NCBI GenBank assembly: GCA_028713575.1 | Contig: JAQTOB010000001.1 | Coordinates: forward strand, 30,001-62,000 | Length of the DNA: 32,000 nucleotides | Reading direction: 5' to 3' | Origin: Patescibacteria group bacterium | GTDB taxonomy: Bacteria; Patescibacteriota; Patescibacteriia; UBA2591; UBA6264 | Part shown: piece by piece, positions 5,793-27,450 of the stretch | Position numbering within the stretch: position 1 is the first letter of the stretch | How the letters are laid out: the number at the start of each line of letters is the position of its first letter | Translations under genes and position numbers: made by a program | The notes under the pieces: model-generated | Seen by the model: the letters and a program-made list of their open reading frames with translations, nothing else | Databases searched by the model: none | Told to the model about the DNA's origin: nothing

Positions 5793-6743
5793 ATGGCAAA
5801 ACTTATTCTTATAGACGCTCAAGCTGTTCTCCATCGCGCTTGGCACGCTTTACCCAAACTGACTGATTCTCATGGCCAAGTGATTAATGCTGTTTATGGA
5901 TTTTCTTCTCTTTTATTAAAACTTATTAATGAACAAAACCCTGATTATTTGGTTGTGGCTTTTGACACTAAGGCGCCCACTTTTCGTCATCAAGAATATA
6001 AAGAATATAAAGCCGGCAGAGAAAAACAGCCAGCGGAATTCTACGACCAAATTCCTTTGAGTAAAAAAATTGTTGAAGCCTTTGGTCTTCCTATTTTTAT
6101 TAAAGAAGGATTTGAGGCCGATGATTTAATCGGCGCCGTTATCCAGTCGCAAAAAAAGAAAAATCCGAAAATAGAGTCCTTGATTGTCAGTGGTGACCTT
6201 GATCTGTGTCAACTGGTTGGTCCCCGGACTTCTGTTTATTATCTCCGGCAAGGGTTGTCTCAAATAAAAATTTATGATCTTAAGGCGGTTAGAGAACGGT
6301 TTGAATTAGAACCAGAACAGTTAATTGATTTTAAGGCTTTAAGGGGCGACCCTTCCGACAATATCAAAGGAATGACGGGCATTGGTCCGAAAATCGCTTT
6401 AAAATTAATTAAAAATTTTAAAACTCTGGACAATCTTTATGAGTATTTGGAAAATTGCTTTAATAAAGGAAGAAAATGTGAAATCAAACAATCTTTAGCG
6501 GAAAAGCTCTGGCAAAATAAAGAACAAGTTCTTCGCGATAAAAGATTGGTAACAATTCAAAAAAATATTCCCGGACTGGAAGCTGAAAAAATAAAAAAAA
6601 TTAATTTTGACTATAAAAAAATAAATAAAATTTTTGAAGAGTTTGGGTTTAAAAGTTTAATAAAAAGATTAATGAAAAATCATTCAAATCAATCTGTAAT
6701 AAAAACAAACTTAATTACCTGCAAACAGAACAAATTATTTTAA
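5793..6743 (+). CDS. Stand-alone 5'-3' exonuclease (Pol I N-terminal/FEN-like domain, no polymerase domain)
   Basis: 'KLILIDAQAVLHRAWHALP', 'VVAFDTKAPTFRHQEYKEYKAGR', 'EADDLIGA' and the H3TH motif 'GIGPKIALKLIKNF'. Start moved to ATG 5793. The ORF ends after about 317 aa. Confidence 0.85.
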   Translation: MAKLILIDAQAVLHRAWHALPKLTDSHGQVINAVYGFSSLLLKLINEQNPDYLVVAFDTKAPTFRHQEYKEYKAGREKQPAEFYDQIPLSKKIVEAFGLPIFIKEGFEADDLIGAVIQSQKKKNPKIESLIVSGDLDLCQLVGPRTSVYYLRQGLSQIKIYDLKAVRERFELEPEQLIDFKALRGDPSDNIKGMTGIGPKIALKLIKNFKTLDNLYEYLENCFNKGRKCEIKQSLAEKLWQNKEQVLRDKRLVTIQKNIPGLEAEKIKKINFDYKKINKIFEEFGFKSLIKRLMKNHSNQSVIKTNLITCKQNKLF

Positions 6744-6899
6744 CCCCTCGCCCCTTAATCACAATGTGCCCGTAAATCGGAATATGTATAAAACCAAAAA
6801 ATAATTTAAAGATTTTTTGAATAATTTAATCAATTTAAATCGCTGCAAAATCATTGCTCTATATTTGAAAGTGATTTCGCCGTAATTAAAAAGTAAGAA

Positions 6900-7961
6900 A
6901 TGATTATTTTTCTTTACGGAAAAGACGCTTATCGTTCCAAGCAAAGACTAAATGTCTTAAGGGAAGAATTTATGAGGAAAAAAGACAAAAAGGGTCTAAA
7001 TGTTTGTATTTTTGAAGCCCATGAATTATCTCTTGATGAGTTGAGAAAATCCTTTTTAAGCGCTGGTCTTTTCTCAGAAAAAAGACTGATGATTATAAAA
7101 AATATCTTATTGGCAAAAACGGCAAAAAAAGATGGGGAAAGTCGCCCCGTCCCGTCCCCTCTGCAAACAGGTGGCAACCCGCCGGAAAGGCAAAAAATTC
7201 TGTTTGAAGAAATTATTAAAATTTTAAAAAAAAACAAAAAAGATGAAGATTTCCCCGCACAGACAAAAAATGTCATTATTTTTTGGGACGAAGAGGTTAA
7301 TGAAAAAAAATTAAATTCTTTTCAAAAAAAAATATTTATTCTTTTAAAAAAAGAGAGGTTTTGTGAAGAATTCAAATTATTAAATGCCGTTGAATTAAAA
7401 AAATGGATTAAAAAAAGAGTTAATAATCAAGGTTTTAAAATTGACGAACAATCTTTAACGCTATTAATTAACGCTTTTGGCAATAATCTTTGGCTGTTAA
7501 ATAATGAGTTGGAAAAGCTAATGGCCTGGAAAATAACAAAAAAAGAAATTGTTTTTTCTGACCTGCAAAAATTTGTTTTCCCCGGACTGGAACAAAATAT
7601 TTGGAAACTGGTTGATTCTTTGGGTCAAAAAAATAAGGCCCTGGCTTTAAAAATTCTTTCAGACCAATTTAAACAAAATGTTGATGTAGCTCAAGTTATT
7701 ACCCTTCTTGCTCATCAATATAGAACAATTATCAGAATAAAATCTTATTTAGAAAAAAATCCAATAAATAATCCTTATCAGTTGGCTAAAATCTTGTCTC
7801 TTCATCCCTTTGTGTGCCAAAAAGCTGTGGCTCAAGAAAAAAATTACAACCTTAATCAATTAAAAAAGACCTATCAGCAATTACTGAAAATAGATCTTTG
7901 GCGGAAAACTAAGAATATTGACTCGGAAACTCTTTTAGATTTGTTAATTGCCAAATCCTGA
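6900..7961 (+). CDS. holA: DNA polymerase III delta subunit
   Basis: The N-terminus 'MIIFLYGKDAYRSKQRLNVLREEF' and 'LFSEKRLMIIKN' are typical of HolA, and the length fits. Contains a GC-rich in-frame island at 7131-7191. Confidence 0.75.
   Translation: MIIFLYGKDAYRSKQRLNVLREEFMRKKDKKGLNVCIFEAHELSLDELRKSFLSAGLFSEKRLMIIKNILLAKTAKKDGESRPVPSPLQTGGNPPERQKILFEEIIKILKKNKKDEDFPAQTKNVIIFWDEEVNEKKLNSFQKKIFILLKKERFCEEFKLLNAVELKKWIKKRVNNQGFKIDEQSLTLLINAFGNNLWLLNNELEKLMAWKITKKEIVFSDLQKFVFPGLEQNIWKLVDSLGQKNKALALKILSDQFKQNVDVAQVITLLAHQYRTIIRIKSYLEKNPINNPYQLAKILSLHPFVCQKAVAQEKNYNLNQLKKTYQQLLKIDLWRKTKNIDSETLLDLLIAKS
7131..7191 (+). repeat. GC-rich in-frame island inside holA
   Basis: 'gatggggaaagtcgccccgtcccgtcccctctgcaaacaggtggcaacccgccggaaaggc' sits in otherwise A/T-rich coding sequence. 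It encodes 'DGESRPVPSPLQTGGNPPERQ'. Confidence 0.5.
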
Positions 7962-8228
7962 TTATTTTCCTAAATTATTAATTTTTTTCATTAAACGCGA
8001 CTTAGTACGAGCCACGGTATTTTTTTTTAAAATGCCTTTTTGTAACATCTTGTCAAGAGATTTCTGAATTTTTAAATAAAAATCCATCATTTGCTTTTTA
8101 TCTTTATCTGCAAAGGCTTTTAAAAATTTTCGTTTCAGCCAGGCGACATTCGCTTTAACGTCTTTATTGCGTTCTGTGCGTTTTTTTGTTTGACGAAGCG
8201 CTTTCTTCGCTGATTGTTTAATCGGCAT
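7962..8228 (-). CDS. rpsT: 30S ribosomal protein S20
   Basis: 'MPIKQSAKKALRQTKKRTERNK' is the canonical S20 N-terminus. Start set at ATG 8228. Confidence 0.9.
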   Translation of the reverse strand: MPIKQSAKKALRQTKKRTERNKDVKANVAWLKRKFLKAFADKDKKQMMDFYLKIQKSLDKMLQKGILKKNTVARTKSRLMKKINNLGK

Positions 8229-8240
8229 AATAGTGAACTT

Positions 8241-8261
8241 AAAAATCAAAAATCAAAATGA
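8241..8261 (-). promoter_or_regulatory. Conserved 21-nt leader motif upstream of rpsT
   Basis: 'aaaaatcaaaaatcaaaatga' (sense strand TCATTTTGATTTTTGATTTTT) lies 12 nt upstream of the rpsT ATG. It is identical to 15723-15743 upstream of rpmH. Confidence 0.5.
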
Positions 8262-8318
8262 AAAATAATAATATAAATAAATTTAAAATTTCTCCTAATT
8301 TTAATGCTGTTCCGTTTT

Positions 8319-8612
8319 TTAATTATCGTAATAATCTTCTTTTTCTTCTCTTTCTCCTTCTTCTAAAAATTCCTCCTCTTTGGAAATCAATTTATCCCAT
8401 TTATCGCGGCCGTCTATTAGGATATTTAATCTAGCCTTAAAATCTTCGTTAAAATCTTTTAATAATTTTGGTTCTTCCTTAAATATTCTTAAAAGATTTT
8501 CCAATGATTCCTCTGGTAAAATGGGTAAAAAAATTAACAGATCGTTCTGATCATCTGGAGAAATTTTAGAAGAATTGATAAATTCCCCCAATTTGTCTAA
8601 TACTTTTGACAT
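8319..8612 (-). CDS. Hypothetical acidic protein (97 aa)
   Basis: ORF with a plausible non-repetitive composition and an acidic C-terminal tail. No recognisable motif. Confidence 0.45.
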   Translation of the reverse strand: MSKVLDKLGEFINSSKISPDDQNDLLIFLPILPEESLENLLRIFKEEPKLLKDFNEDFKARLNILIDGRDKWDKLISKEEEFLEEGEREEKEDYYDN

Positions 8613-8648
8613 TTATTTAGCTAATTCCTTCTCAATTTATAAGCCTTG

Positions 8649-8999
8649 TTATCTCAGTTTTTTAGGATGGCAAAAAATTCTAGGTTTGGTCTCTTGGTTG
8701 ATAATCTGGGGGTTTTCTTTAACTTTCATCATGGCTTCCCGACTAGTTATAAGAATCCCCATTCTATTCCTAGTCGTATGAGGATGTCTATCCATCATTT
8801 GCAAATTCTCTTGGTCCTTTTCGTTAAAAAAAACTGCCTTTTCCGGATTATTGGTCTTTTCAAGAATTTTTCTTCTTATCTCCCTGGTAGTCTGTTCTAT
8901 CGCCTGTTCAATAGCCAATTTTTCCTCCGTCTCCTCCGACCTCATTGTTGGATTTTCAAAAACATTCATATATTTATCGGCTTGATAAGTTTCCTCCAA
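8649..8999 (-). CDS. Hypothetical protein (116 aa)
   Basis: The minus-strand ORF has a protein-like charged composition. The overlapping plus-strand ORF (8646-9008) is F/L/S-rich and looks like an antisense artefact. Confidence 0.45.
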   Translation of the reverse strand: MEETYQADKYMNVFENPTMRSEETEEKLAIEQAIEQTTREIRRKILEKTNNPEKAVFFNEKDQENLQMMDRHPHTTRNRMGILITSREAMMKVKENPQIINQETKPRIFCHPKKLR

Positions 9000-14153: not shown

Positions 14154-14876
14154 TTAAATTGCAACTTTTTTTTTAAAAGCAATTTTTTGTTCAAAAATCG
14201 TGATTAAAACGCTAACCAACCAATAAAGCATTAAACCGCTAGGCAGGGTTAAACCAATAAAAAAAGTCATTATCGGCATCATAAATTTCATTTGTTTATT
14301 CATAATAGACATCATGTTTTCATCTTTGGCTTCTTTTTGTTTAATCATTTCTTTAACTGGCTGATTGTCGGCTAAAACTTTTATCTGTAAATATTGAAGA
14401 ACACTTGTGACTAAAGCTAAAATAAAATTCGGCTTAGATAGGTTTAAAATACCAAAAGCCATAACATTTAAAGTTCCGGGATTATGAATAAAAGAATAAA
14501 TGGGTAAAGAAGCGTTTGTTAGCCCAACGCGGAAAACTTGAAAAACTGCAATTAAAATAGGAAATTGAATTAATAAAGGCAAACAAGAAGAAAGGGGGTT
14601 TATTTTATTTTCTTTATAAATCATCATCATTGCCTGTGCTTGCTTGTCTTTTTGGTTGGCGTACTTTTTTTTAATTTCTTCTATCTTTGGTTGTAAATCC
14701 TTTAATGATTTTTGGGCTTTAATTGATTGGCGAGATAAAGGAAAAAGTATTAATTTGACTATCAAAGTCAAAAAAATAATAGCCACTCCTAAATCATGAC
14801 CCGGAATTAAATTATAGAAAACCACCAAAAGGTTTAATAATGGTTGATAAAGAATTGTTTTAAAAAATTCAATCAT
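14154..14876 (-). CDS. yidC: Membrane protein insertase YidC (short form)
   Basis: 'LGVAIIFLTLIVKLILFPLSRQSIKAQKSLKDLQPKIEEIKKKY' and 'SCLPLLIQFPILIAVF' are typical of YidC/Oxa1. Start set at ATG 14876. The track start at 14927 lies inside a repeat/promoter tract. Confidence 0.85.
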   Translation of the reverse strand: MIEFFKTILYQPLLNLLVVFYNLIPGHDLGVAIIFLTLIVKLILFPLSRQSIKAQKSLKDLQPKIEEIKKKYANQKDKQAQAMMMIYKENKINPLSSCLPLLIQFPILIAVFQVFRVGLTNASLPIYSFIHNPGTLNVMAFGILNLSKPNFILALVTSVLQYLQIKVLADNQPVKEMIKQKEAKDENMMSIMNKQMKFMMPIMTFFIGLTLPSGLMLYWLVSVLITIFEQKIAFKKKVAI

Positions 14877-14906
14877 ATTTTCTCGCCAATGCTCAGTCAA
14901 ATGCAA

Positions 14907-14935
14907 AATATAAATTTCAAAATGCAAAATGACAA
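14907..14935 (-). promoter_or_regulatory. Putative promoter for yidC
   Basis: On the minus strand: TTGTCA (14930-14935), 17-nt spacer, TATATT (14907-14912). It is embedded in the CAAAAT-type repeat tract 14897-14947. Confidence 0.35.
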
Positions 14936-14962
14936 TGTAAAAATTTTTTAAATTTTAAACTT

Positions 14963-15211
14963 TTATGGTTCGTCCCATCCTCCCTTGGCCCAAGGATGAC
15001 AACGAAAAACTCTTCCAACTGCTTTAATCCCTCCCTTTATGAGTCCGTATTTCTCAATGGCCTGATAGGCATATTCCGAACAAGTCGGCTGAAACTTACA
15101 GACACCGGGCCAAGGATGTAACAAAGAAAACGGTCCATGGTCGGGAGAAAGTGTTTTTTGATAAAGACGAATTAATTTTAAAACCAACAGCTTTAACCAA
15201 GTAAATGCCAT
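14963..15211 (-). CDS. yidD: Membrane protein insertion efficiency factor YidD
   Basis: 'CKFQPTCSEYAYQAIEKYGLIKGGIKAVGRVFRCHPW..GGWDEP' is the YidD signature. Confidence 0.9.
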   Translation of the reverse strand: MAFTWLKLLVLKLIRLYQKTLSPDHGPFSLLHPWPGVCKFQPTCSEYAYQAIEKYGLIKGGIKAVGRVFRCHPWAKGGWDEP

Positions 15212-15213
15212 TT

Positions 15214-15555
15214 TTATTGAATTAATCCTCCTTTTTTAAAAATTTTTAAAATTGCGCTTTCTATTTGTTGAAAATCTAATTCTTTAATCTTTGGTCGCGT
15301 GAGAATTAAAAAATCATACCCTAAAACAAACTGTAGTAAATATTTTTTTAAAATGGCCCTAATTCTTCTTTTGATTTTATTGCGCATTACCGCCCTTTTA
15401 TCAACTTTTAAAGAAACCGTAATGCCAAAACGAGAATAATTTAGATCATTTTTAATCCATTTTAAACTGACTTCTTGACCAAAAATCATTTTCCCTTTTT
15501 GCGCTACTCTCGCAAAATCATTATTTTTAACCAAGCGATATTTCTTGGGTAACAT
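15214..15555 (-). CDS. rnpA: Ribonuclease P protein component
   Basis: The position between rpmH and yidD, 'KKYRLVKNNDFARV' and the basic 'RNKIKRRIR' motif all fit RnpA. Confidence 0.85.
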   Translation of the reverse strand: MLPKKYRLVKNNDFARVAQKGKMIFGQEVSLKWIKNDLNYSRFGITVSLKVDKRAVMRNKIKRRIRAILKKYLLQFVLGYDFLILTRPKIKELDFQQIESAILKIFKKGGLIQ

Positions 15556-23484: not shown

Positions 23485-23509
23485 AAAAACGAAGTTAGTC
23501 AATTAATAA

Positions 23510-23893
23510 TCACTTTTTAAGAGAATCTCTTATCTCTTTGAGAATTTCTATTTCCTCTGGCGGCTTAACGGGTTCTTTTTCTTCTTTCTTTTTCAGTTTG
23601 CCAAAGTAATGAACGGCAATGAAAATAGAAAAAGCAATGATTATAAAATCTATAATCGTATTAATGAAAATTCCGTAATTAATCGTAATTGCCGGAGCCG
23701 TTTCTGACGCCTTTTTTAAAACAAGCATCAAGTTTGAAAAATCAATGCCTCCCAAAAGCAAGCCGATTGGCGGCATAATAACGTCCGTGACCAGGGAGCT
23801 AACTATTTTTCCAAAGGCGCCACCAATAATTACGCCGACTGCCATATCAATCACATTTCCTTTTAAAGCAAATTTTTTAAATTCTTGTAACAT
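23510..23893 (-). CDS. mscL: Large-conductance mechanosensitive channel
   Basis: '[40 protein letters not shown]' is the canonical MscL N-terminus. Confidence 0.9.
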
Positions 23894-23919: not shown

Positions 23920-24624
23920 TTATTTTCCATTAAGATTGTTCCTCTTTTTGTCCGGTAAACTATTTTTGAAAAATCGCCCAAAACCTAATGCTGATAAAAA
24001 TTTTAGAAAAACATTTTTCAGAAATAATCCCCTTTTAATAATAAAAAAATCTTTGAAGTGACACCATTCTCTAACATCTTCCCCTAATTTTTGGATTAAC
24101 GTCAAACTGTTAACTGGCGTTTTGACTATTTTATAGTTTTTCTTATTGTTTTTTATCCAAGAAACCACATACTGTGTAGACCTCATCCATGAATCGTGAA
24201 AAAGTATGTATCCTTTATGATTTAGCAATAAATCAATGTAATAAAAATCAATAAAAATGTCATCAAATTTATGGCCTCCATCAATAAAAGCAAAATCTAT
24301 TTTTACGTTCTTTTTCAGTAACCCCGGTAAAACATTGTGTGAAAAATCATTTTTAAGATTAAGATACTTTTTCAGGCCCAATTTTTCCATATTCTCCAAA
24401 CCAAGATTAAAATATAGTCCTTGTGAAGGATCTATGACATAGTGAATGCTTTTAGTTGCAGAAATGATATAAGCCGTTGAACAACCGTAAGCAAATCCCA
24501 CCTCAAGTGTTTTTTTTAGATTATTATCCTTAAGAAAATTGTAAATATATTCGCCCTCTGTCTCAGTGATAGAAGTTGCCTTGTCTCCGTTAGGGATTTC
24601 TAGTTGTTGATAAATTCCGGTCAT
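23920..24624 (-). CDS. Class I SAM-dependent methyltransferase (O-methyltransferase family 3/Methyltransf_24-like)
   Basis: SAM motif I 'LEVGFAYGCST' and 'FAFIDGGHKF'. The substrate is unknown. Confidence 0.65.
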   Translation of the reverse strand: MTGIYQQLEIPNGDKATSITETEGEYIYNFLKDNNLKKTLEVGFAYGCSTAYIISATKSIHYVIDPSQGLYFNLGLENMEKLGLKKYLNLKNDFSHNVLPGLLKKNVKIDFAFIDGGHKFDDIFIDFYYIDLLLNHKGYILFHDSWMRSTQYVVSWIKNNKKNYKIVKTPVNSLTLIQKLGEDVREWCHFKDFFIIKRGLFLKNVFLKFLSALGFGRFFKNSLPDKKRNNLNGK

Positions 24625-24719: not shown

Positions 24720-24822
24720 GGGGATTTAGGGACCGCCCCCCCCCTTTCTCTCTCCGCAAACTTGCTCTAGAAGAGAATTTTAGGGCGTTTTTTAAAATTT
24801 AGAACTATTTCGACTACTCGGA
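24720..24822 (-). repeat. Diverged inverted copy of the 97-nt repeat
   Basis: The reverse complement reads tagtcgaaatagttctaaattttaaaaaacgccctaaaattctcttctagagc...gggggggggcggtccct. It aligns to the 25436-25532 repeat at three anchors with conserved spacing. Confidence 0.5.
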
Positions 24823-25425
24823 TTAAATAAATCTTTCGTTCTTAATAAATTTCGGCTTTGGGGGATTTTTGGATTCCTCTTTAACAAATTCTATATAATC
24901 CTGACGAAGTCCTTCTATCTCTCTTTCTCCGCTATATTCCAAAAAACGATTTCTATCAATTAAATCATCATTGTATTCCTTTTGAAAATAAACCGAAAAA
25001 CTGCTCCAAAGATAATCTTCTAATTTTTTACAAAGCCCCGCCCGTAAAGCATTCAGATCAATATAGGCGCTAACCGCCCAAAAATAAGATTCTGTATTTA
25101 TTAGAGAGGCATAAAATCTATCCTGAAATAAATGGCCCTTTCTTTTATATCTTCTATTAAAATATCCTGCATAATAACTATTAATGTAATGCATTATCTT
25201 GGAAACGACAACTTCGCCGACTTCTACGTATAAATGAAAATGGTTTGGAAGTAAATTATAGGAATAAAGATAAAAACCAAACATTTTTTTTGCCCTTTTC
25301 AAAATCGTCAAAAATTTCTTATAATCCTGTGGTGCTCGGAAAATACATCGTTGATTAACACCACGACAAACTATGTGATATAAAGCACCATTAGTAATAA
25401 TTTTTTCCCTTGTTTTTCGGGGCAT
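24823..25425 (-). CDS. IS200-like / REP-associated tyrosine transposase (RAYT)-like HUH protein
   Basis: HUH motif 'LLPNHFHLYVEV', 'GHLFQDRFYASLI', the Tyr region 'YIDLNALRAGL' and 'DYLWSSF'. This is the Y1_Tnp-family pattern. Confidence 0.8.
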   Translation of the reverse strand: MPRKTREKIITNGALYHIVCRGVNQRCIFRAPQDYKKFLTILKRAKKMFGFYLYSYNLLPNHFHLYVEVGEVVVSKIMHYINSYYAGYFNRRYKRKGHLFQDRFYASLINTESYFWAVSAYIDLNALRAGLCKKLEDYLWSSFSVYFQKEYNDDLIDRNRFLEYSGEREIEGLRQDYIEFVKEESKNPPKPKFIKNERFI

Positions 25426-25435
25426 TTTATTAAAT

Positions 25436-25532
25436 TAGTCGATATTCGACTACTTTTTAAAAATTGTCTTACAACCCGCTTCTAGTAATGATTTTAGAAT
25501 GGTATTTTTAGGGGACAGTCCCCTTTTTATAA
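25436..25532 (+). repeat. 97-nt hairpin-containing repeat, copy 1
   Basis: Contains the palindromes gtcga-tat-tcgac and aggggac-a-gtcccct. It is 95/97 identical to 26769-26865. Confidence 0.85.
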
Positions 25533-25590: not shown

Positions 25591-26553
25591 TTATTTCAAA
25601 TAGTGATTCAAATTAATCTCAACAAAAAAATATTTTTCTCCTCTTTTTGCAAGAAAAAATAAAATTCCATTTTTATCGAGTTCAATTGGATAAGCAAAAA
25701 TCGCACAACAGCTGTTAGTTCTTATTTCATCAAAATCCCGAGAAATTTTTTGACCATTAAAGAAAAAAAATTTTTTTTCATCTTTTTCACCTACGAATCC
25801 TATATTGTCTTTATATGCAAATAAATGTGAACTTGCTTCAACTAAATATTTCTCATTGATCGTTTCATCATTATACCAAATATTTCGCTCCACAATTGGC
25901 GTATTCTTATCCTTCCACTCCTTGAGATCGTAAAAAGTGAATGCGGGTGAATTTAGTATCATGCTTGCATCTTCAATAACACTTTCCGCTCCGAAATACA
26001 TTTTATGGGAAAAAATTTCTTGCTCATTTTTAAAAATAGAATAATTGTCGTCGCCTTTGATGTTTCCAATAGTATAAACGTCCTTACTAAAACCATAAGA
26101 TTCTGCTGTTTGTTTAATATTAATATTATTTATTAAATCTTTTCTAAATTCAGGGTTAATTATTAAACACCAATTATCTGGACCACATTCAGCCACTTTA
26201 AATTCCGGTGGTAGATTATTTTTATATGCTTGCAAGCCAACTATTGAACAATTATCTTTTGTGCCATTTCTACATTCAATTTTGTATTGCAAGTGATACA
26301 TTGGCGTTCGTCCCTGGATTTCATGATTTTGGTTATACCAAAAATTTTTTCCTTGTTTTTGAAGTCGGGTTATTTCTTTTCTGATTAGTGTGAAAATATC
26401 ATCAACGGTTTCACTTGTAAGAGTTGTTTCTATTTCATGGTAAATTTGAGATTGGCTATCAACGGGAATTTTATTTTCCCTGTTTTCAATTTGAGAGGTC
26501 GTGCACCCCGCTAAAAAAAATCCCATTATCAGTAGAAAAAAATATTTCTCCAT
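25591..26553 (-). CDS. Hypothetical lipoprotein (320 aa)
   Basis: The signal peptide has the lipobox 'FFLAGC'. No recognisable domain. The gene is bracketed by the two 97-nt direct repeats. Confidence 0.6.
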   Translation of the reverse strand: MEKYFFLLIMGFFLAGCTTSQIENRENKIPVDSQSQIYHEIETTLTSETVDDIFTLIRKEITRLQKQGKNFWYNQNHEIQGRTPMYHLQYKIECRNGTKDNCSIVGLQAYKNNLPPEFKVAECGPDNWCLIINPEFRKDLINNINIKQTAESYGFSKDVYTIGNIKGDDNYSIFKNEQEIFSHKMYFGAESVIEDASMILNSPAFTFYDLKEWKDKNTPIVERNIWYNDETINEKYLVEASSHLFAYKDNIGFVGEKDEKKFFFFNGQKISRDFDEIRTNSCCAIFAYPIELDKNGILFFLAKRGEKYFFVEINLNHYLK

Positions 26554-26768: not shown

Positions 26769-26865
26769 TAGTCGATATTCGACTATTTTTTAAAAATTGT
26801 CTTACAACCCGCTTCTAGTAATGATTTTAGGATGGTATTTTTAGGGGACAGTCCCCTTTTTATAA
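26769..26865 (+). repeat. 97-nt hairpin-containing repeat, copy 2 (direct orientation)
   Basis: Two mismatches relative to 25436-25532. Confidence 0.85.
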
Positions 26866-26900
26866 GTCCCCTTTTTATTGAAGGTCCCTTTTTATTGAAG
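26851..26900 (+). repeat. Three tandem 15-18-nt units
   Basis: The units are gtcccctttttataa, gtcccctttttattgaag and gtccctttttattgaag. The first unit is the 3' end of repeat copy 2. Confidence 0.7.
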
Positions 26901-26991
26901 TAATATTGACTTCTCGTTGCCTATTAAACGAATTTTAAGTATAATGTCTTTGCTTCTTAAGTTTACCACTCTTAAAATAACAGGCAATATT

Positions 26992-27450
26992 ATGTCAATT
27001 ACCCCAACCTATTCGGAAAAACAAACATTTGATTTAGGTAAAAAATTCGCGGAAAAACTCCAAGGCGGAGAAGTTATCGGTTTAACCGGCGATTTAGGCG
27101 CGGGAAAAACCGTATTCATTAAAGGTTTAGCAAAAGGACTGAAAATTGAACAAATTATCAACAGTCCGACATTTGTTTTGATGAAATTATACAAAATCAA
27201 TTCAAAATTCAAAAATCAAAATGCAAAATTACAATGCAAAATTCAAAATTTAGTTCATGTAGACGCCTATCGTTTAAATTCTAGTCAAGAATTAATTAAC
27301 GTTGGCATTGAAGATTATCTGGAAAAGAAAAATGCGATTGTTGTGATTGAATGGGGGGAAAAAGTGAAAGATATTTTGCCAAAAGACAAGATTTCTGTTA
27401 AAATAAAGTTTGGGGGGAAAAAAAATGAAAGAGTAATAAGAATAAAATAA
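26992..27450 (+). CDS. tsaE: tRNA threonylcarbamoyladenosine biosynthesis ATPase TsaE
   Basis: 'GLTGDLGAGKTVFIKGLAKGL', 'SPTFVLMKLY' and 'HVDAYRL' are TsaE/YjeE motifs. Start at ATG 26992. Contains a repeat-encoded insert at 27192-27251. Confidence 0.85.
   Translation: MSITPTYSEKQTFDLGKKFAEKLQGGEVIGLTGDLGAGKTVFIKGLAKGLKIEQIINSPTFVLMKLYKINSKFKNQNAKLQCKIQNLVHVDAYRLNSSQELINVGIEDYLEKKNAIVVIEWGEKVKDILPKDKISVKIKFGGKKNERVIRIK
27192..27251 (+). repeat. CAAAAT-type A-rich repeat tract inside tsaE
   Basis: The sequence is caaaatcaattcaaaattcaaaaatcaaaatgcaaaattacaatgcaaaattcaaaattt. It shares 'aaaaatcaaaatg' with the rpsT and rpmH leaders and 'caaaatgcaaaat.acaatg' with the yidC leader (14917-14945). 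Confidence 0.7.

Follow-up and report, generated by a model that had tools for sequence, protein, structure and literature searches.

The window, a 32,000-nucleotide stretch of a Patescibacteria genome, contains a single long open reading frame between positions 24300 and 26000. The frame lies on the minus strand (24823–25425) and encodes a 200-residue protein that carries the sequences LLPNHFHLYV and YIDLN. The first holds the HUH motif (His62 and His64), and the second contains the catalytic tyrosine, Tyr121. A sequence-only reading of this DNA had singled out the frame by these two motifs, and Pfam agrees, matching Y1_Tnp (PF01797) with E = 6e-16 and 59 bits against a cut-off of 23. The best NCBIfam model was REP_Tyr_transpos at 64.6 bits, under its cut-off of 80, and the NCBIfam IS200 model, whose cut-off is 55, gave only 19 bits. 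A profile made from 45 homologs matched E. coli TnpA-REP (PDB 4ER8) with E = 8e-8, compared to about 0.6 for the IS200-type TnpAs 2F4F and 2EC2. The AlphaFold (AF2) model of the protein has a pLDDT of 86.5, and its top Foldseek match is again 4ER8 (E = 1.4e-8), followed by the IS608 and ISDra2 TnpAs at about 1e-5. The NHFH motif, Tyr121, the Pfam score, and the Foldseek matches all place the protein in the Y1 HUH superfamily. Residues Asn61, His62, His64, Gly97, Arg103, and Asn125 are invariant in 45 of 45 homologs, and Tyr121 is nearly so. The tyrosine motif is Y...N, compared to Y...Q in IS200. A C-terminal HTH is absent from the window protein (the Pfam search returned Y1_Tnp alone, and the chain stops at residue 200), and a C-terminal extension is present in the more distant homologs P0113, P0117, and P0120. 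A profile search sized the family at 46,439 clusters (50% identity) at E ≤ 1e-3 and 2,807 at E ≤ 1e-30. These data identify the protein as RAYT-like, as the sequence-only reading had proposed, and place it closer to TnpA-REP than to IS200/IS608 TnpA.

Both sides of the gene carry a repeat of about 100 nucleotides, which we call an arm. The upstream arm, copy A, is intact (25426–25532, minus strand) and scores 77 bits with covariance model R1 and 48 bits with a profile HMM trained on arms from 20 Patescibacteria loci outside the window, termed the window-free HMM. Its inner palindrome, TAGTCGA-TAT-TCGACTA (25436–25452), lies 10 nucleotides upstream of the ATG. An A/T tract (25454–25463), a middle hairpin (about 25480–25499), and an outer palindrome, AGGGGAC-A-GTCCCCT (25510–25524), follow. 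The two palindromes had been noticed in the letters alone, and neither is found in shuffled windows. Copy A as single-stranded DNA forms three hairpins and folds better than its shuffles on both strands (z = -3.6 and -4.4). The downstream arm, copy D (24720–24828, plus strand), is inverted with respect to copy A and decayed. It consists of an outer palindrome remnant (24728–24740), a middle hairpin (about 24742–24785), an A/T tract (24788–24797), and an inner remnant (24800–24817).

Two further copies stand apart from the gene. Copy B (26769–26865, minus strand) is a solo arm in the orientation of copy A, aligned by blastn over 97 of 97 nucleotides with 97.9% identity, that scores 65.6 bits with the covariance model and 46 bits with the window-free HMM. 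It sits in the divergent intergenic region between a gene for a 320-residue protein and tsaE, and it bears out the earlier expectation of an additional repeat copy nearby. Reading the sequence at its outer end (26857/26866–26897) shows that the outer half-palindrome has been duplicated in tandem together with flanking sequence from outside the arm (GTCCCCtttttattgaag, GTCCCtttttattgaag). The idea that the 320-residue gene between arms A and B is cargo found no support; its homologs are ordinary Patescibacteria/Magasanikbacteria genes in contexts that have neither arms nor a RAYT gene. Copy C (23959–24041, minus strand) is a fourth, degenerate solo arm overlapped by the 3' end of a methyltransferase frame (23920–24624). 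It is 69% identical to copy A over 84 nucleotides with 45.4 blastn bits, compared to 32.6 bits for the best shuffle, and it was missed by both the covariance model and the profile HMM. All four arm copies of the 32-kb window lie within 1.5 kb of the gene, and blastn, motif, and HMM searches located no arm copies in the 29 kb of the window that lie farther away. The tetranucleotide GTAG occurs in copies B and D only, inside a lineage-specific palindrome, and is missing from the other ~45 arms. Rfam has no match in the region; its matches in the window are two tRNAs.

The sequence-only reading had aligned the reverse-complemented left flank to the right flank with three anchors at identical spacing. 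The alignment is ungapped over about 95 columns with tagtcga, ttttaaaaa, and cttctag in register. The pairwise blastn score of 32.6 bits equals the best match in 50 shuffled windows and is marginal alone, and the left flank folds no better than shuffles (z about 0). These two results are what would be expected if the similarity arose by chance and only the right-flank repeat and copy B were real. However, the window-free HMM found exactly three full-length sites in the window, at 25428–25524 (minus strand, 48 bits), 26770–26857 (minus strand, 46 bits), and 24729–24816 (plus strand, 30.5 bits, E = 8e-9), and the shuffle maximum is 16 bits. The inverted arrangement recurs in 21 of 24 related loci, and copy D aligns almost gap-free to 40 other arms. 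The sister strain L004 retains a near-perfect palindrome, GGGGGGACAGTCCCT, at the left end where the window has GGGGGGGGGCGGTCCCT. The failure of the left flank to fold is explained by the decay of its terminal palindrome to GGGACCGCCCCC. The window-free HMM match and the L004 palindrome exclude a chance similarity, which we consider extremely improbable, and therefore the left flank is a real but decayed inverted arm. With the terminal palindrome of the downstream arm gone, the whole unit may no longer be a substrate.

The anatomy of the arms was derived from related genomes. GTDB species genomes were scanned with the protein alignment, which gave 80 loci, ~25 of them Patescibacteria at 48–70% identity; the 24-locus comparison consists of the 25 Patescibacteria loci minus L001, which belongs to the window's own species. 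The upstream and downstream flanks are inverted repeats of 24–126 nucleotides in 21 of these 24 loci (≥80 nucleotides in 19), 64–96% identical with E values from 1e-4 down to 1e-15. The copy in L011 is direct, not inverted. Four elements recur around the ~25 Patescibacteria homologs: the outer palindrome (GGGGWC-W-GWCCCC), the middle hairpin with its covariation, the A/T tract, and a motif proximal to the gene. An alignment of 41 arms is almost free of gaps. Read from the outside in, the modules are the outer palindrome, a spacer of ~8 nucleotides, a variable segment that forms an imperfect hairpin, the T/A tract, and the gene-proximal motif. The outer ends in related loci are perfect 13-nucleotide palindromes, GGGGACWGTCCCC, GGGGTCWGACCCC, GGTGACWGTCACC or GGTGCCWGGCACC, and the variant is always identical in both arms of one element. 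The gene-proximal motif is usually TTTGGCA-N3-4-TTTTGA and is swapped for a palindrome in some lineages, TAGTCGA...TCGACTA in the window and TTTACCC...GGGTAAA in L031/L032. In every locus, the arms directly adjoin the start and stop codons, and intact arms from other loci have fold z scores from -1.8 to -6.4.

The helices were examined on a MAFFT alignment of the arms. RNAalifold recovered the outer palindrome alone; the middle helix was entered by hand and then tested against slid-partner and shuffled controls. In the outer and middle helices, 70.6% of cells pair, compared to ≤53% with slid partners. The covariation score is 0.286 compared to ≤0.172, with controls that leave the kinship of an element's two arms in place. 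Pairing and covariation as high as those observed were not reached in any of 500 shuffles, and both-side changes occur in 12 of the 13 middle-helix pairs. The pairing and covariation support a conserved hairpin that either DNA strand, or RNA, could form.

Inverted repeats around the gene extend beyond the Patescibacteria. Homologs with 30–40% identity from Lachnospiraceae, Actinomycetota, Acidobacteriota, and others also lie between inverted repeats, whose ends (GGGGTCAGG..., GGGGACGG... and similar) are GGGGWSAS-like. The exact palindrome GGGGWCWGWCCCC flanks Actinomycetota/Gaiellales genes (homologs with ~35% identity), where it is found ~100 nucleotides upstream of the ATG and again directly after the gene. 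Patescibacteria sequence (45 kb) without this gene contained neither the palindrome nor arms.

A compact unit with defined inverted ends might be an ordinary autonomous IS200-like insertion sequence with terminal inverted repeats, of which a unit of ~810 bp transposes and the solo arms are relics of decayed copies. Related units do occur in many different gene neighborhoods, and some genomes have two or three paralogs. The gene order T2SSE-LeuRS-TsaE-RAYT...TsaD is common to the window, L018, L027, and L019; a neighbor-joining tree, calculated without support values, groups the window protein with the non-syntenic L008–L010 and not with the syntenic L018/L027/L019 clade. This grouping, within the limits of a tree that has no support values, contradicts simple vertical inheritance at the tsaE-tsaD locus, and the disagreement with synteny suggests that the unit relocates or is replaced over long time scales. 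Bertels et al. (2017, PMC5581495) also reported that, among the housekeeping-like RAYT groups, group 1, to which the protein is assigned below, comes closest to an IS, with duplicates at 6.3%. Other observations speak against an insertion sequence. The exact protein is found at one place on a 517-kb contig, and neither this contig nor the related genomes with paralogs contained identical or near-identical gene copies; the paralogs have only ~48–58% identity with the query. The two arms of an element are just 64–78% alike in most loci, and therefore the insertions are old. The protein is identical in seven samples of the species, the gene varies within the species at only two sites, both synonymous, and it has stayed intact and identical across the seven samples while the downstream arm decayed. 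The Y...N tyrosine motif is not that of IS200, and the 98% identity of solo arm B to arm A indicates recent copying of the arm alone. We conclude that an ordinary insertion sequence is unlikely, and that the behavior of the unit is that of an element of low activity, domesticated for the most part, and not of a proliferating one.

Solo arms are a regular companion of the gene. The covariance model detected 49 gene-adjacent arms and 15 solo arms in 349 kb. All 15 are located ≤10 kb from genes of this family, which amounts to 15 solo arms per 315 kb near homologous genes. Solo-arm density is 0.70 per 10 kb over the first 2.5 kb from the gene and drops to 0.15–0.39 at 5–10 kb, based on only these 15 copies. 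Solo arms are 84–98% identical to one arm, closer than the two arms of an element are to each other, which points to the copying of single arms. The inner end of a solo arm usually extends to the start codon, and one arm copy in L001 includes the first ~35 nucleotides of the gene. The genome CAZDOL01 has three paralogs with a separate arm type each, and the contig of one paralog also carries solo arms of another's type; therefore, the arm families are paralog-specific and dispersed. An exact 24-mer of the arm end matched a single 3.3-kb contig among metagenome contigs, a collection that does not include the 517-kb contig.

Contigs ~99% identical to the window reveal differences between strains. 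In L001, four to five arms, full or partial, are clustered, a 2.7-kb insertion adjoins copy B, and the end of copy A carries a 14-nucleotide duplication. L004 has an arm end immediately behind the stop codon of mscL, a position without one in the window. Stretches bounded by arm ends include the 2.7-kb segment in L001, which carries integrase/HNH sequences, and the 320-residue gene, which lies between two direct arms that are 98% identical. The outer half-palindrome plus 6–12 nucleotides of outside flank is tandemly duplicated at no fewer than 11 of 62 perfect palindromes, compared to <1 expected by chance; ten of these duplications extend outside the arm and one inside. Replication slippage at hairpins could produce such duplications without an enzyme. 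Taken together, the solo arms, the paralog-specific arms, the strain polymorphism, and the end duplications suggest that arm ends are still being cut and copied, a process in which we infer a role for the enzyme.

The position of the arms also raises a regulatory role. The arms may be mainly regulatory or structural host DNA, made up of insulating terminators and a promoter/operator bound by the protein for autoregulation, with the other repeats being reuse of the same module. The inner palindrome 10 nucleotides upstream of the ATG and the abutment of arms on start and stop codons in all loci fit this idea, and the region holds more hairpin-plus-T-run sites than expected (8 compared to 1.9). 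However, all terminator-like matches in the arms are on the plus strand, antisense to the RAYT gene and its minus-strand neighbors, and arms as terminators were rejected on these strand grounds. Across the loci, A-rich and T-rich tracts beside the outer palindrome are about equally frequent. Regulation leaves unexplained the solo arms away from any RAYT gene, the paralog-specific arm families on other contigs, and the half-palindrome duplications on the outside only. A mainly regulatory function is thus improbable, more so than an insertion sequence. Both ideas are less well supported than the assignment of the unit to a known class of RAYT-like elements, the TIRtrons.

In 2013, Di Nocera, De Gregorio & Rocco (PMC3733652) reported on genes resembling RAYTs that lie between long terminal inverted repeats instead of GTAG REPs. 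Many of these repeats have the motif GGGGWSAS, and they also occur solo, as dimers, or in clusters at moderate abundance. The units were named TIRtrons and their proteins TIRYTs; we found no later use of either term in a literature search. Quentin et al. (2018, PMC6006769) placed 20 of 26 TIRYT proteins in TnpA-Y1 subclass 2.1, which is characterized by NH[YF]H or NHVH, W[EQ] or FQ, Y[IV]xLNP (Y[IV]HLNP), and an 'SS' tail. This subclass usually has a C-terminal HTH (Bac_DnaA_C, HTH_23, HTH_28), is heterogeneous in this respect in 2.1.2, and yielded no REP-like structures in that study. The same class is RAYT group 1 of Bertels et al., where the flanking 16-mers number ~12 per replicon. RAYTs were not linked with Patescibacteria in PMC6006769 or in our full-text literature search, and the literature searched contained no biochemical evidence for a subclass 2.1/TIRYT protein.

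The window unit resembles the TIRtrons in most respects. Both have a RAYT-like Y1 gene enclosed by long inverted terminal repeats with no relation to GTAG REPs, and the GGGGWSAS ends are matched here by GGGGACAG..., GGGGTCAG... and variants. The gene has a low copy number in TIRtrons and, on the contigs covered here, in this clade as well, and solo repeats, single or clustered, are moderately abundant in both. The protein was assigned to subclass 2.1 by motifs, with NHFH, LFQDRF, YIDLNA, and YLWSS fitting Table 1 of PMC6006769; the alanine of YIDLNA replaces proline in most of this Patescibacteria clade. There are also differences. The window protein is shorter than subclass 2.1 TIRYTs at 200 residues and lacks their C-terminal HTH/DnaA_C domain. 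The arms are longer than those of the described TIRtrons (~100 nucleotides), are tripartite, and end in a complete 13-nucleotide palindrome. Clear hairpins are present here, in contrast to the lack of REP-like structures reported for subclass 2.1, and the host phylum, Patescibacteria, is unmentioned in those papers.

The sequence-only reading had called the locus a REPIN-like RAYT-REP system. The RAYT-like protein, the inverted flanks with hairpins, and the extra copies stand, and the unit shares with the REPtron of E. coli TnpA-REP (RAYT group 2, 4ER8) an apparently single-copy, domesticated gene, hairpin repeats in inverted orientation with further copies elsewhere in the genome, and co-variation between protein and repeat, in addition to the top sequence and structure match. 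The REP part of the label did not hold. The arms are tripartite and ~100 nucleotides long, whereas REPs have 20–40 nucleotides and a GT[AG]G foot; neither REPs with this foot, REPIN doublets, nor a copy number in the hundreds was seen in the window or near homologous genes, and the REP_Tyr_transpos score is under its cut-off (64.6 compared to 80). The IS200/IS605 elements (IS608, ISDra2) share the HUH/Y1 fold and hairpins at the element ends, but their ends are not inverted repeats, their tyrosine motif is Y...Q, and they are present as multiple near-identical copies. By its sequence features, the unit matches the TIRtron/TIRYT class (TnpA-Y1 subclass 2.1, RAYT group 1); it is not a canonical GTAG-REP/REPIN system and probably not an ordinary multi-copy IS200. 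The appropriate label is 'TIRtron/TIRYT', in place of 'REPIN-like RAYT-REP system'.

We favor, with a probability of roughly 0.6, the interpretation that the locus is a TIRtron in which the gene for a RAYT-like Y1 HUH single-strand endonuclease lies between its own cognate inverted arms of ~100 nucleotides. Each arm presents an outward 13-nucleotide GC-rich palindrome, GGGGAC-W-GTCCCC, followed by the structure-conserved hairpin, the A/T tract, and the gene-proximal palindrome. By analogy to TnpA-REP and IS608 TnpA, the enzyme would recognize the arm hairpins while the DNA is transiently single-stranded, and would cut and rejoin one strand at or beside the outer palindrome. Occasional copying of a whole arm to a nearby intergenic site would give rise to solo arms such as B and C, and the same activity would rearrange the arm ends. 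Single-stranded hairpins at the arm ends are the most likely site of action, given what these relatives do; binding sites in double-stranded DNA would account for the palindromes just as well. It is from this analogy that we infer binding and cleavage of the arms by the protein, the single-stranded nature of the substrate, and the position of the cut.

A more specific version of the TIRtron mechanism places the nick at the center of the 13-nucleotide outer palindrome, the hairpin tip, with one-ended, rolling-circle-like copying starting there. We advance this as a speculation with low odds. A nick at this position would explain why the duplication units always start at the palindrome center. 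It would also explain the fixed outer and variable inner end of the solo arms, one of which carries the first 35 nucleotides of the gene, and the arm ends that bound strain-variable cassettes near the replication origin. If this were true, TIRYTs would shuffle reduced genomes locally and would cleave DNA in a manner unlike that of both TnpA-REP and IS608 TnpA.

What is new here is a TIRtron example in the Patescibacteria. The class itself has been known since 2013, and the general picture of RAYT-like genes is unchanged by the finding. The informative details are the tripartite arms, the palindrome shared across phyla, and the duplications that start at the palindrome center. Within the Y1 HUH family, TIRYTs (subclass 2.1, RAYT group 1) are among the largest branches, and the Patescibacteria clade is an unusually clean and compact case, a 200-residue core enzyme that has no extra DNA-binding domain. 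The clade offers a sharply defined 13-nucleotide palindrome conserved across phyla, lineage-specific variants of it, and paralog-specific arm types, and its natural polymorphisms point to the palindrome center as the break point. These features turn the question of the TIRYT substrate into a direct oligonucleotide binding and cleavage experiment.

The RAYT gene is close to what is probably the replication origin. The end of dnaA is found ~1 kb past the right end of the window (positions 1–54 of L001, a locus from a sister strain), at a distance of ~7.6 kb from the RAYT gene, and rnpA, yidD, and yidC are located at ~14–15.6 kb of the window (14154–15555). The RAYT gene sits in the tsaE-tsaD interval, and the gene content of this interval varies among genomes.

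Two neighboring genes touch the ~100-nt arms or lie between them. The last ~40 codons of a 234-residue methyltransferase ORF cross the degenerate solo arm copy (window 23920–24041). The Pfam domain of this protein ends near residue 151 of 234, and its carboxy-terminal tail may be repeat-derived. A 320-residue gene (25591–26553) is positioned between two direct arm copies (25436–25532 and 26769–26865) that are 98% identical. Its product has a lipoprotein-like signal at the amino terminus and gave no Pfam match. In Magasanikbacteria and other Patescibacteria, the gene has homologs that are accompanied by neither arms nor a RAYT gene; their neighbors include tsaD in one case and IS256-type transposase fragments in another.

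The arms are arranged unusually at several homologous loci from other genomes. At a single locus, L011 (9902–10706), the two flanks are direct rather than inverted repeats: the downstream one matches the upstream arm at 95% identity. Twin terminal palindromes spaced 2–16 nt apart, formed by head-to-head or tandem arm ends, are present in L013 (6054–6081), L032 (13080–13109), and L024 (7443–7484), and one such pair adjoins a tRNA gene. These twin palindromes are the closest likeness to REPIN-like doublets that we observed.

Arm ends also differ between closely related strains. L001, which is ~99% identical to the window, carries a 2.7-kb insertion (5982–8651; window counterpart ~26776–27007) between tsaE and the solo arm that the window has at 26769–26865. 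The insertion holds genes for a XerC-like tyrosine integrase and an HNH homing-endonuclease-like protein as well as an 85-residue ORF, and four to five full or partial arms are clustered along one of its borders. In L004, from another close strain, an arm end (AAAAAGGGGACTGTCCCC, three repeats with partial copies) directly follows the mscL stop codon (1955–2045); at the corresponding window position (23494–23510), only 7 nt separate mscL from the next gene. The L004 contig stops within this repeat, leaving one junction visible.

Tandem duplications occur at the arm ends, nearly always outside of the arm. The duplicated unit starts at the exact center of the 13-nt terminal palindrome and consists of its outer half plus 6–12 nt of outside flank. 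Examples are found at window 26857–26897, at L001 9880–9915, and at L014 2917, L015 8564, L018 8624, L025 142, L026 8320, L029 5830, L031 1620, and L032 10739. This pattern suggests a break, or slippage, at the hairpin tip.
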